DNA of 52,233 nucleotides, from the NCBI GenBank assembly GCA_029210695.1, contig JARGFH010000024.1, forward strand, positions 1-52,233. Reading direction: 5' to 3'. This DNA is from Acidimicrobiia bacterium (GTDB lineage: Bacteria; Actinomycetota; Acidimicrobiia; Spongiisociales; JAHEDJ01). A program made the position numbers. Positions 30,591 through 33,500 of the stretch are shown here, one piece after another. How positions within the stretch are numbered: the first letter of the stretch is position 1; each line of letters begins with the position of its first letter.

Positions 30591-33500
30591 AGGCTTAAAA
30601 CCCCCTACTCGCTTAGCAGGCGAGCGCCTTCGACCGCTCGGCCACCTCTCCAACTCGTCGGGCATTGGTAGCCCGGCGGTACTGATACCTCGTACAACGT
30701 ACTACGTACCTCGGGCATTCTACGAGCCAGGCGATTCCGTGAACGATTCGACACAAGATGCACACGTGGACGCCGTGTTCAACCACTGAGGGCTCTTCCG
30801 GGACACGCCCGAACCGACCGCCCGATCGCAGCCGTTGTGTGCGGGGTGACGTAGTGTGGATGGGGTGGATACTTCTGATCCGAATCCCGACGCCCTGCTG
30901 GATGGCCGGGAGCCGGCTCGTCGCCAGGTTTCAGTCGGGGCCACCGTCCTGTACGTCGAGGAGCAGGGTTCAGGTCCGGCGGTGTTGTTGATCGGTGCTG
31001 CCGACGAGGACGCCGAGATATATCGGGGCATCGCCGATCGTCTTTCATCAGACTGCAGGGTTGTTACCTACGACCGTCGCGGCACCCGGCGTAGCGGACG
31101 GGAGGGGTGGCCATCCGACTCGGCTCGCCATGCCGACGACGCTGCTGACCTGATCACCAGCCTTGGACTGGAGGAGGTGACGGTTCTGGGAGCCAGCGCC
31201 GGTGGGATCGTCGCCCTCAGGCTGGCGCTCCGCCACCCTGACCTGGTGAGGAATGTCCTCTGCTTCGAACCTGGCATCTTTCAGATGACCGACGACGGAA
31301 GGAAGCTCGAGGACCAAGGCGCATCATCAGTCGAGCAACATCTTGACTCACATCCAGGCGACTGGATCGGCGCAGTCGATGCCTTAGGACGAGCAGCAGC
31401 CAGTTCCCTCACCGACGTTTCAAGCTTGTTCACCCCACCCATTGGACGGGAGTGGTTCGCCCAACGAGCCGATGAGAACGCTGAAGCGTTTATCCGAGGT
31501 GACCTGCCCATCACCCGAGAGCACTTCGATCTAGAGGCAGTAGCAGGCTGCCAGACAAACCTTCGATTCGCCTACGGCAGCGCATCGCACCCTGTCTTTC
31601 ACGGCATAACAGCCGAACTCGCTGCGAGCCGCTCACAAATCCCAGACCGCCTTGAGGGAGTCGGCCACCTCCTATTCCACCACCCTGAAGCAGCAGCCTC
31701 TTACATCCTCGGCTCGCTCTAAAGGCGCAACACCCCTCTGCGACAGCACAACCGCCCACAAGTCCGATTTGGGCGGTTGACGGGTGTACTCGTTCTGGTC
31801 CGAGACTGAGTGATATGCGTGGCTCGATGCTCCGCAACAACCCCGTAGTTTTTGGTGACCGGGTGTAGTCGAGGGAAACACCGTCTAGACCCGTCTAGTT
31901 CCGTTGGCTGACGCACACCATGGCACCGGGTACAGCACCGGGACGGCGTATGCAACCAACTAGGGCCTCCTCCGGGGCACGCCTCGACCTACCGCTCAGT
32001 ATCTGCCGCTATATGCGGATGTGGTGCGCCGATGCGGGTGTCTGCCATACTCGAATCAGCCCACAACGGAGGACATAGCCATTTCGAAGCTCATTAGAAC
32101 CGCCCGGTGGACGGGGGTGTTCTACCTCGGGCTCGCTGTGGCGGGACTCGTCGGGTTTCTCTTCGTTCGTGGCGAGTTATTCGTGGCCGAGGACCCCGCA
32201 GCCACACTGGCCAACTTGATCGATCAGGTCACGCTCGCCCGACTTGGCATCGCTGCCGACATGACGATCGTTCTCACCCAGGCCCTGGCGGCCATCTGGT
32301 TCTTCAAGCTCTTCCGCAGCGAGAACAGCTTCGCCGCAGGATCGATCGCCGCCTTCGGGTTGGTCAACGCCGCTGCGATCGTGGTAGCAACGACCTTCTC
32401 AGCGACGGCCCTTATGGTGGCGGGCGACGCCGCCCTCGCTCCGGGCGGGGACCAGGCTGCAACCGTACAGTTGCTCTACGAGCTCAATGGAAGCGCCTGG
32501 AGTATCGGTGGTCTCTTCTTCGGTCTGTGGCTGATACCGATGGGTTACGTGGTGGTCAAATCCAGAGTGATGCCAGTCGCTCTCGGGTGGGTGTTGATGG
32601 CCGGAGGAGTCGCATACGTGATCAGCACCTACGTCACCCAACTCGTCCCCGACGCTCCGACAGCGGTCGAATCATTGCTCGTGGGGGTGGCCACCGTCGG
32701 CGAGTTCTGGATGATCGGGTACCTCCTCATCTTCGGTATACGCAGGTCGGATCGCATTCCCCATTCAAGCTCCCCTGCGGCAGAAGCGTGATCCGTCGAG
32801 TAGGAGGAGGTACTGGTCCGGTCGGTTTGGCAGGCGCCGAACCAGACCAGACCTGAGGGAAATCACGCTGTCGGCGAGGCTGGGCCCCCACTGTCCAACA
32901 GTCCAGTTGGTTGCCGACGGTCGGATCACGCGAGCGCAACCGCGGTCGACGAGAGAACCGGGGGAAACGTGACAAGCGACAAGTTCCTGACCCGCACCTG
33001 GAACAACCAATTGACGCTGCTGCTGGGCCTGCCGACCCTGGCCTGGGCCGTCGTCGCGCTAACCACCTCGGTCTTCTCGGATCTGACAGAGTTCATCGGC
33101 ATGGTGGTGTTCGCCGCGGTCTATTGACCGGTCGTGGAGTACCACTCCACCCGGCGGTTCGCCTGGGAACGCGAGAAGACGGTGGGCGGTGACCCGCAGA
33201 AGCTCAGTATCGGCCACCCGTACACCTGGATCCTCATCATCTACAACGCCGTCTACTGGATCCCGATGGTCCTGCCGTGGACGCCGCTGATGAGCTACCG
33301 GGGCGGGGTCATCGGCCTAGTCATCCTCATTGGCGTCCGAGCGACAGCCAACCTGTATCGGAACAACTTCATGACGTTCGAGCAGGCGGAGGTGTTTCCG
33401 CTGAGGATTCCCTAGTGGTCTGTCTGCTATTTGATGACCGGGGTAGGCAGTGCCACGAACCCTGCCACAGCGGGGATCGTCCGGCAGGAGACCAAGTCAC

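Follow-up and report, generated by a model that had tools for sequence, protein, structure and literature searches.

Escherichia coli fdhF is the archetype of the selenoprotein gene with an intragenic bSECIS, and most of the prokaryotic selenoproteins known so far are soluble enzymes with a thioredoxin fold or a metal cofactor. Small membrane proteins of about 130-180 residues with four transmembrane helices are familiar from MAPEG/MGST, DsbB, VKOR and DoxX, which place a catalytic residue at the membrane interface and act on lipid-soluble substrates or quinones. In bacterial selenoprotein genes, the UGA is followed 16-37 nt on by a hairpin, for which the bSECIS model gives an apical loop of 3-9 nt with a G in its first two positions, an upper stem of 4-16 bp and an MFE of at most -7.5 kcal/mol; selA, selB, selC and selD are needed for decoding, and Cys homologues exist (PMC13188914, section 5). 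The integral-membrane prokaryotic selenoproteins comprise the MerT-like (PF02411), YeeE/YedE (PF04143), SaoP (NF040733), P-type ATPase (TIGR01525), SO_0444 (NF033936) and NqrE (PF02508) families (PMC13188914, Table 1).

In this study, we propose that two small "hypothetical" genes in the genome of an Acidimicrobiia bacterium are one gene, split by gene callers at a UGA that almost certainly encodes selenocysteine. The window, i.e., the whole stretch of 52,233 nt that was analysed, carries this gene between a DUF4386 membrane protein gene and a convergent gene for an MDR-type oxidoreductase (Table 1). Similar to the known bSECIS genes, its UGA is followed by a hairpin with a small loop that opens with G and G/U, the selenocysteine machinery is present in the host and Cys homologues exist. 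In contrast to them, it has two adjacent conserved, covarying hairpins instead of one, its protein falls in none of the listed families, and the Sec forms outnumber the Cys forms (61 N-terminal pieces versus 10 Cys proteins among the best 150 matches of a profile built from Sec forms only). As in the known membrane selenoproteins, Sec is located in or at a transmembrane segment; yet the new protein has no sequence relation to them (no Pfam or NCBIfam match), is much smaller (four helices, 148 aa), has its lone Sec outside any UxxC, CxxU or CU motif, and its genomic link is with an MDR oxidoreductase instead of transport genes. In size and helix number it resembles MAPEG/MGST, DsbB, VKOR and DoxX, a general and not a computed likeness that offers a possible working analogy, not membership. 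The Pfam models of MAPEG, DsbB, VKOR and DoxX give no match at E<=1 to the read-through protein (P0001) or ten homologues, these families (MAPEG/MGST, DsbB, VKOR, DoxX) are absent from the best 50 matches of either Foldseek or VIA-align, and the Cys pair of DsbB and VKOR is lacking.

Table 1. Features of the predicted selenoprotein locus, in window coordinates
Feature	Position	Strand	Basis and remarks
DUF4386 membrane protein gene, upstream neighbour	32021..32791	+	Pfam PF14329, 1e-50
Putative Shine-Dalgarno-like run GGGGGA	32960..32965	+	Read from the sequence; 3 nt 5' of the GTG start
Whole gene, predicted selenoprotein	32969..33415	+	Runs from a GTG to the TAG at 33413-33415; 148 sense codons, Sec53 among them
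In-frame TGA, predicted selenocysteine codon U53	33125..33127	+	TGA in 62/62 scored copies; Cys or Trp in full-length homologues
Hairpin 1 (columns 11-15 paired with 21-25)	33135..33149	+	RNAalifold consensus; over codons V-E-Y-H-S
Hairpin 2, SECIS-like core, CCCGGCG-GUU-CGCC(U)GGG	33150..33167	+	Fold, covariation, bSECIS model
MDR-type Zn-ADH / quinone-oxidoreductase-like gene (327 aa), convergent neighbour	33617..34600	-	Pfam ADH_N, ADH_zinc_N, ADH_zinc_N_2

The reading frame, its TGA and the downstream hairpins

The two open reading frames from which the preliminary description started, 32969..33127 (52 aa, GTG start) and 33134..33415 (93 aa), are present and join into one 148-aa product, ...AAVY-U53-PVVEYHS..., once the TGA is read as U. 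Coding character was assessed by GC3 and pN/pS in place of the codon-usage scores used before (16.6/9.6). The same-frame GC3 amounts to 0.88 on the 5' side of the TGA and 0.89 on the 3' side, with 0.63-0.69 in the flanking spacers, and the three blocks for which pN/pS was computed (0.38 before the TGA, 0.60 and 0.48 after it) show purifying selection on both flanks. When the window is paired with its four closest copies, pS drops to 0.00-0.17 over the 17 codons after the TGA versus 0.42-0.68 before it.

Retention of the TGA had been claimed for seven copies, and the number is far larger: the triplet was found in 23/24 copies of a first set and in 62/62 DNA copies scored later, which span 35-94% protein identity, while one additional copy has an extra G at the Sec codon. 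The same-genus copy with 52% identity and its single in-frame TGA is among those found. The lowest pairwise identity among 54 distinct proteins is 35%, and the host MAGs of the TGA-form copies carry labels from about ten phyla or classes. The gene terminates in TGA (35 copies), TAG (19) or TAA (4), whereas the internal stop is TGA without exception; since TGA also ends the same gene, the recoding is position-specific. The gene is rare and patchy, with 2/61 relatives and 1/301 genomes of the class sample, the latter being the source genome itself. Two loci (L088, L089) have the C-terminal part only, without a recognisable N-terminal half. A 217-nt contig from a metatranscriptome library spans the TGA with eight differences, which is weak evidence because DNA can occur in such libraries. 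Relatives 85-99% alike occur in sequencing runs labelled 'marine sediment' and 'cold seep', labels that support no habitat claim, and run X24 yielded none; the share of the gene's words per run is small (<=0.17).

The GGUU hairpin with compensatory changes that had been described after the UGA is borne out by a consensus fold and by covariation counts over 57 sequences, and a further hairpin precedes it. In hairpin 1, double-sided changes occur in three of the four pairs tested (columns 12-15 with 21-24), pair 12-24 for instance being GC in 22, CG in 15 and UA in 4 sequences. Hairpin 2 has its apex G-GUU-C with GUU at 33157-33159, 29 nt past the UGA, and folds with an MFE of -10.0 kcal/mol into a 7-bp stem, interrupted in the window by a single C.U mismatch or bulged U. 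Here, 92% of the cells are paired, five of seven pairs have double-sided changes and G33/U34/U35 are invariant (57/57). For both hairpins together, 89.6% of the cells are paired versus 79.4% in shuffled alignments, 8/11 pairs have double-sided changes and the covariation score is 0.291 versus 0.115; none of 500 shuffles reaches the observed value in any of the three measures, and slid controls are 20-50% paired. Because the covarying sequences fall into a few clades, the cell counts overstate the number of independent covariation events. Hairpin 2 partly overlaps the conserved R-F-A-W motif, and the third position of the Ala codon varies in concert with the residue that precedes R-F.

Measured against the four bSECIS criteria, hairpin 2 has a 3-5 nt loop of the form N1-G-[G/U]-N-N2, a 7-bp stem, a spacing of 29 nt and an MFE of -10.0 kcal/mol, all within the model (PMC13188914, section 5). 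Rfam gave no match at E<=1 in 32800-33600. A genome-wide scan for a TGA followed by a GGU-loop hairpin was dropped as far too permissive, with 775 candidates in the source genome. In that genome, selD has one in-frame TGA of its own and a hairpin 13-16 nt past it with GGUU on the 5' side of the loop, a likeness to the new gene that is suggestive only, and the AhpD-related selenoprotein gene has a weak hairpin only, with a CGGGC loop.

The source genome encodes selA, selB, selD and tRNA-Sec, all over curated cut-offs. Five of five other TGA-form hosts tested have selB and tRNA-Sec over cut-off, and the gene was thus found together with both in 6/6 TGA-form genomes. In the mechanism we propose, UGA-53 would be decoded as selenocysteine through SelB and tRNA-Sec, directed by the SECIS hairpin within the coding sequence 29 nt downstream, and gene callers that halt at the UGA would produce two 'hypothetical proteins'.

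The membrane protein, its neighbours and its possible function

The four membrane helices of the preliminary view, with Sec where helix 2 ends, agree with both the hydropathy profile and a confident AlphaFold model (pLDDT 92.1, pTM 0.82) with four hydrophobic segments. Both termini would be cytoplasmic and helix 2 would be long and extend past the membrane, with Sec53 about one turn from its cytoplasmic end. Nearly all other invariant polar residues (T8, W11, N12, N13, E57, H59, R124, N128, R131 and N133) map to the cytoplasmic face, and Y92 and N93 lie close by in helix 3. Because Sec53 and nearly all invariant polar residues are predicted at this face, we infer that there is one active site only, located in the cytoplasmic leaflet. 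Among the Sec forms, 51/54 have no other Cys; with no partner Cys, Sec would therefore work by itself, either as a ligand or as a selenol of peroxidase-like or nucleophilic character.

The absence of a Pfam or NCBIfam family also stands. The read-through protein remains below cut-off throughout (best E 0.16) and none of the homologues scanned scores above cut-off, the closest case being P0020 against TMEM100 (7.6e-4, 19.5 bits, below the 34-bit cut-off). A protein atlas search with the Cys homologue P0017 gave a best score of 0.88 and no family. When the whole 119-family table of the 2026 review was compared, the protein matched none of the Pfam, NCBIfam or TIGRFAM family models; entries defined only by cd/PTHR identifiers (TlpA-like, Prx-like, CopZ-like, BtuF and Fe-S oxidoreductase) were set apart by name as soluble folds (PMC13188914, Table 1). 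A sequence-profile search of the PDB returned chance-level permease matches only (best E 0.067), Foldseek gave no match at E<=1e-3 and the best VIA-align result (Z 7.9) is to unrelated helical bundles, so that none of the three yielded a fold or sequence relative pointing to a chemistry. We consider it highly probable that the proteins constitute a genuine, previously undescribed selenoprotein family.

The neighbourhood offers a lead to function. An MDR gene directly adjoins the selenoprotein gene in 17/57 loci, which show at least four different arrangements and come from MAGs labelled as several phyla; in the window the two genes are convergent, not co-oriented. The neighbouring MDRs are 42-61% identical to that of the window, apart from one at 32%, and the six MDR paralogues of the source genome are 24-52% identical to it, only one of them exceeding 37%. 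The MDR neighbours have the ADH_N, ADH_zinc_N and ADH_zinc_N_2 architecture of the PIG3-family NAD(P)H:quinone oxidoreductases and zeta-crystallin-like MDRs (TIGR02824, NF008024). The quinone_pig3 model (TIGR02824) is the best NCBIfam match in all four MDR neighbours tested, with 136-152 bits (152.1 for the window), below the cut-off of 296.8 bits, and because of these scores we regard the MDR neighbours as a distinct subfamily. The link depends on the clade: it is nearly absent from the 'IVVEQHSGMRFAW' clade, where L041 is the sole case and to which the same-genus relative of the window belongs, and no MDR gene stands beside the Cys-form loci (0/4). The order DUF4386, selenoprotein gene, MDR recurs in L055 (labelled Dehalococcoidia). 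In the literature searched, no description was found of an MDR of this kind paired with a small membrane selenoprotein.

Based on this neighbourhood, the MDR of the window is a possible, if doubtful, functional partner of the membrane selenoprotein. The lone Sec53 at the cytoplasmic leaflet would form the active site of a membrane-phase redox reaction on a lipid-soluble peroxide, quinone or electrophile, and NAD(P)H coupling would run via the often-adjacent quinone-oxidoreductase-like enzyme. A redox site at the cytoplasmic membrane face that is coupled to the MDR is our best, though tentative, proposal, somewhat unlikely in this exact form, and we hold the specific redox role with the same reserve. 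Going one step further, the protein could be the catalytic membrane half of a new two-component system, in which the soluble NAD(P)H-dependent MDR feeds the lone Sec directly or via quinol and Sec detoxifies or reduces lipid hydroperoxides or quinone-type electrophiles; this is rather unlikely in such detail. As a whole, the best explanation of the locus, one Sec gene with a SECIS and a proposed active site in the cytoplasmic leaflet, is very likely, whereas its MDR-coupled redox part carries the lower odds given above.

A genuine selenoprotein could also handle soft metals or metalloids, binding or transporting them via Sec, His and Glu, instead of taking part in NAD(P)H-linked redox chemistry. 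U53, E57 and H59 are invariant, CopC/CopD genes adjoin one locus (L071) and an ArsR-type gene another (L056), and three of the six membrane selenoprotein families in the review have to do with metals (the MerT-like family, the P-type ATPase and the Cu/Zn exporter SO_0444; PMC13188914, Table 1). Yet metal-related neighbours are confined to 2/57 loci as against 17/57 for the MDR, and the protein offers one soft ligand only, without a CxxC, a UxxC or a second Cys. We therefore judge a metal role improbable.

One gene or two, and the part played by selenium

Our own profile search gave 178 matches at E<=1e-3. Among the best 150 of these, 61 are N-terminal pieces whose last residue is exactly profile position 52 and 34 are C-terminal pieces that start at most 10 positions past the Sec column; a further 33 C-terminal and 10 N-terminal fragments fall outside these two groups, and 12 are full-length across the Sec column. 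The picture is the same as in the earlier split into 57 N-terminal, 50 C-terminal, 25 other and 10 full-length representatives. At the Sec column, ten of the 12 full-length proteins have Cys and two have Trp, which upholds the Sec/Cys signature claimed before.

These pieces are just the calls that two separate genes would give, namely a peptide of 52 aa that ends at the TGA and, from a new start a few codons on, a protein of 93 aa, both with two helices, the hairpin serving translational coupling or mRNA stability. Codon +3 is indeed GTG in the window, as it is in 22/57 copies. However, this codon is GTC in 26 further copies, GTT in 5, GTA in 2 and ATC in 2, and the first in-frame ATG, GTG or TTG after the TGA stands at offset 1, 2, 3, 4, 5 or 9, or is lacking within 19 codons in 5/57 copies. 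Neither a restart codon nor its position is thus conserved, whereas residues +1 to +3 past the TGA are conserved at the protein level, and no Shine-Dalgarno motif precedes GTG 33134. The 12 natural fusions with Cys or Trp at the junction, a junction stop that is always TGA where the terminal stops vary, and the co-occurrence with the Sec machinery in 6/6 genomes also argue against two genes, which we regard as very improbable. A single gene decoded with Sec has, in our judgement, a high probability.

Equally remote is a single gene whose UGA a near-cognate tRNA-Trp or a suppressor reads through with no selenium involved, the hairpin being a generic stimulator. An RNA structure that follows a stop codon can promote read-through, and the two full-length homologues with Trp (P0015, P0016) have a residue whose codon is one step from TGA; the DNA of P0016 was sought in genome contigs and not found, and its Trp may stand for TGG or for a TGA called under another genetic code. 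Against this reading, Cys outnumbers Trp at the column 10:2, the hairpin has the SelB-type consensus with its invariant G-GUU-C apex, and the source-genome selD, too, has GGUU on the 5' side of its post-UGA loop. Moreover, the hairpin is gone where the codon is TGC: all four Cys-form loci have this codon, and no GUU hairpin folds in them (z +0.9 and -0.6). In the MAGs of these four loci, neither selA (0/4) nor selB (0/4) was found over cut-off, whereas selB and tRNA-Sec accompany the TGA form in 6/6 genomes. A pseudogene, a sequencing error or an alternative genetic code is ruled out by the TGA in 62 independent assemblies, by the 35 copies in which TGA ends the same gene and by a genome that otherwise reads as table 11.

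Implications for selenoprotein biology

If the selenocysteine reading is true, the prokaryotic selenoproteins gain a family of small integral-membrane proteins whose single Sec lies where lipid meets cytosol, a family thinly scattered over MAGs with many different phylum labels. Public data would then mis-annotate a selenoprotein gene as two hypothetical proteins, and annotation pipelines would gain a new model that combines a protein profile with a well-defined SECIS with an invariant G-GUU-C apex. The gene would also provide a clean natural case of a SECIS that constrains synonymous sites plus an amino-acid choice. The recurrent MDR partner makes the function testable and, should the two-component proposal hold, the family would represent a bacterial membrane selenoenzyme of new fold and chemistry, with Sec rather than Cys as its usual form.

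Reading frame and conservation of the in-frame TGA

The two ORFs reported at 32969-33415 in the preliminary description are present and were correctly placed. Behind the TGA the frame stays open for 95 more codons up to TAG, and translation with TGA as U yields 148 residues (...FAAVY-U53-PVVEYHSTRRFAW...). GC3 in this single frame is 0.88 on the 5' side and 0.89 on the 3' side of the TGA, compared with 0.63-0.69 for the spacers on either side. Upstream of the first GTG lies a GGGGGA run, and inspection of the sequence revealed no Shine-Dalgarno-like sequence before GTG 33134.

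Coordinates of the features discussed (window unless a contig or locus is named)
Feature	Position	Strand	Remark
N-terminal ORF	32969-33127	+	52 codons, GTG start, ends at TGA
C-terminal ORF	GTG 33134 to TAG 33413-33415	+	93 aa by gene-calling logic
Hairpin 2	33149-33168		-10.0 kcal/mol
MDR-type gene	33617-34600	-	ADH_N + ADH_zinc_N + ADH_zinc_N_2; convergent immediate neighbour
tRNA-Ser genes	30559-30651, 35071-35161, 35239-35330	-	four different anticodons with the next row
tRNA-Ser gene	37142-37235	+	
selD	C94:13659-14588	-	locus L018
MDR paralogues on both sides	L054:2937-5473; L064:2954-5554		Chloroflexota-labelled
baeRF locus	L029:2239-3384		
C-terminal part only	L088:1394-1690; L089:4001-4231		MAG loci
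Stop at invariant Trp11	L093:2704-3117		Cys form
Stop within helix 1	L067:2859-3296		

Twenty loci came from a metagenome scan and 46 more from two genome scans, with MAG labels including Acidimicrobiia, Anaerolineae, Dehalococcoidia, Chloroflexia, Planctomycetota, Fidelibacterota, Neomarinimicrobiota, Lentisphaeria, Deltaproteobacteria and Gemmatimonadales. These assignments are fallible, since two contigs from related MAG sets, one labelled Verrucomicrobiales (L021/L045) and one Acidimicrobiia (L022), both match the window's protein at 84% with the same E-value; one of these bin assignments is probably wrong. The same-genus copy described earlier was recovered with one TGA at 52% identity, and the claim that the TGA is kept in frame at one column held for 23 of the 24 copies in the first set. 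On the metagenome contig L042 (about 100-110; protein P0155) TGGA replaces TGA, and the extra G, giving Trp and then a frameshift, means either that the assembly is wrong or that the copy is decaying. All 62 copies with an anchorable 3' end carry the TGA, a count that leaves out L042, L040 (3' end missing, although its TGA was observed), L045 (on the same contig as L021), L084 and L087 (contig beginning past the Sec column), L088 and L089. The last two retain only the C-terminal 80-90 residues behind unrelated sequence, with no recognisable N-terminal half, and may be truncated or rearranged copies. The stops in L093 and L067 possibly mark pseudogenes or assembly errors.

The 54 distinct proteins share 35-95% identity (median 49%). 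In the scored copies, neither TAA nor TAG ever occurs as the internal stop, and the terminal stop is TGA in 35 cases, TAG in 19 and TAA in 4. The codon at which gene callers restart varies (GTC 26, GTG 22, GTT 5, GTA 2, ATC 2), and the earliest possible in-frame start after the TGA falls at six different offsets, with none in 5 of 57 sequences. pN/pS amounts to 0.38 over the 15 codons 5' of the TGA, 0.60 over the 17 codons 3' of it and 0.48 over the last 60.

A profile built from 18 read-through sequences gave 178 matches (E<=1e-3) among 1.84 billion cluster representatives. When the best 150 of the 178 were re-aligned to the profile, 61 were N-terminal pieces ending at position 52, 34 were C-terminal pieces beginning at most 10 positions past the Sec column (Met62 being the start in 25), and 33 other C-terminal and 10 other N-terminal fragments remained. 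The 12 that span the column have Cys (10) or Trp (2), in agreement with the Cys previously claimed for full-length homologues. Where family members are named, they are called 'hypothetical protein', one cluster member 'O-acetylase', and none 'selenoprotein'. Four Dehalococcoidia loci belonging to one Cys subfamily have a TGC codon; the GUU hairpin is absent downstream in these Cys-form loci (folding z +0.9 and -0.6). Neither selB nor selA scored above cut-off in any of the four Cys-form MAGs, which span only 0.8-2.2 Mb, so that their absence is not proven.

RNA element and Sec machinery

Over the 60 nt from the TGA, 57 distinct sequences align without gaps, and RNAalifold on the first 19 yields two hairpins side by side. 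With the tested structure (columns 12-15 paired to 21-24, and columns 26-32 to 36-42) applied to all 57, 89.6% of cells are paired versus 79.4% in shuffles, both-sided changes occur in 8 of 11 pairs, and the covariation score is 0.291 versus 0.115, none of these values being reached in 500 shuffles; as the covarying sequences belong to a few clades, the number of independent events is smaller than the cell counts suggest. Sliding the partners by one to three columns leaves only 20-50% paired. Both hairpin features put forward previously, compensatory changes and a conserved GGUU loop, were confirmed: all stem pairs of hairpin 2 vary, 5 of 7 in a compensatory manner, and G33-U34-U35 is invariant in 57/57. 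At pair 29-39 (UA 35, GC 12, AU 4), the synonymous third base of Ala65 covaries with the variable residue (R, Q, K or M) before Arg63. The published bSECIS model specifies a loop of 3-9 nt with G in its two leading positions and the pattern N1-G-[G|U]-N-N2, a stem of 4-16 bp, a spacing of 16-37 nt and an MFE <= -7.5 (PMC13188914 section 5); hairpin 2 of the window, 29 nt from the UGA, conforms to it. When the window is paired with its four closest sequences, synonymous divergence is 0.00-0.17 in the 17 codons after the TGA versus 0.42-0.68 just upstream, as expected under an overlapping RNA constraint.

The host genome (3.9 Mb assembly, 98% complete) can make selenoproteins. Its tRNA-Sec scores 73 bits against a gathering score of 47, and selA, selB and selD each exceed their curated cut-offs. 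selD is itself a selenoprotein gene, with one in-frame TGA (...HGSG-U-ACK...) and a post-UGA hairpin, AGCUC-GGUUCUGAC-GAGCU, that likewise contains GGUU; an AhpD-related gene (NF041238) with one in-frame TGA is a second known selenoprotein gene there. In five of five further host genomes of TGA forms, selB and tRNA-Sec were above cut-off. Sec synthesis is fed by Ser-tRNA chemistry, and four tRNA-Ser genes (anticodons GCT, TGA, CGA, GGA), which also show up as sub-threshold tRNA-Sec matches, lie inside 7 kb around the selenoprotein gene; this clustering is probably coincidence.

Relation to known families, distribution and expression

As stated before, the window's protein matches no Pfam or NCBIfam model above cut-off, and the same holds for ten homologues. 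Searches for structural relatives returned nothing significant in the PDB by profile (best E 0.067), no Foldseek match at E<=1e-3 and only generic helical bundles with VIA-align (Z<=7.9). The placement outside the families of the 2026 review also stands, as nothing corresponds in the whole of its Table 1 (119 families and subfamilies), where the membrane entries are MerT-like, YeeE/YedE, SaoP, P-type ATPase, SO_0444 and NqrE (PMC13188914). Term searches covered the deep-Sep paper, the GOS study, BSepDB and the Actinomarina preprint: the term 'membrane' does not occur in the text of deep-Sep or in that of BSepDB (111 families), and the GOS passages report GOS_A to GOS_C and no membrane family. 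Full-text searches found no such family described in the main texts; supplementary tables could hold candidates.

The gene is rare and patchy (2/61 relatives' genomes, the host counted; 1/301 genomes sampled from the class, namely the host), yet the MAGs that contain it bear the labels of many phyla. A 217-nt metatranscriptome-library contig with 8 differences bridges the TGA by >31 nt on either side, with no change listed at the TGA; as such libraries can contain DNA, it is only a weak hint of expression.

Predicted topology, MDR neighbourhood and possible function

Hydropathy indicates four hydrophobic segments (about 15-34, 40-56, 85-104 and 112-127), the second followed by the basic loop RRFAWEREK, and AlphaFold2 (24-row alignment; pLDDT 92.1, pTM 0.82) predicts helices at 9-32, 38-71, 84-104 (kinked) and 110-134. 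By the positive-inside rule, both termini and the 57-83 loop would be cytoplasmic, which would place Sec53 roughly one turn inward from where helix 2 ends on the cytoplasmic side. In the 54 Sec forms, T8, W11, N12, N13, G20, F42, U53, E57, H59, F64, Y92, N93, W97, P99, R124, N128, R131, N133, P144 and R146 are (nearly) invariant, and the polar residues among them lie mostly at the cytoplasmic face in the predicted topology. Since 51/54 forms have no Cys besides the Sec, a CxxU or UxxC redox couple does not apply.

A gene of the MDR (Zn-ADH/quinone-oxidoreductase-like) family adjoins the selenoprotein gene in 6 of the first 20 loci, the window counted, and in 11/37 genome loci (17/57 in total); in the 11 genome loci the two genes mostly share a strand and are about 25-90 nt apart, the MDR gene being upstream, downstream or present on both sides. 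Chance adjacency is roughly estimated at ~0.4% per locus. The host genome has only seven MDR genes of this kind. The neighbouring MDRs share 42-61% identity with the window's MDR (one 32%), whose paralogues in the host reach 52% in one case and <=37% in the others, and all four tested match best the quinone-oxidoreductase PIG3 model, below cut-off. The link is not universal: against it count the 'IVVEQHSGMRFAW' clade, where an MDR neighbour is nearly absent (L041 only), and the Cys-form loci (0/4). In L054 and L064, same-strand MDR paralogues flank the selenoprotein gene on both sides. DUF4386 lies upstream of the gene in the window and in one further locus (L055), and at a single locus (L029) a baeRF (archaeo-eukaryotic release-factor-like) gene is found ~1 kb downstream.

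All computational criteria used in the field support the selenoprotein reading, and the family is undescribed. As to function, metal handling is the main rival and appears rather improbable. Tentatively, we propose that the lone Sec may form the centre of a redox site on the membrane's cytoplasmic face, which would often be coupled to an MDR that depends on NAD(P)H.
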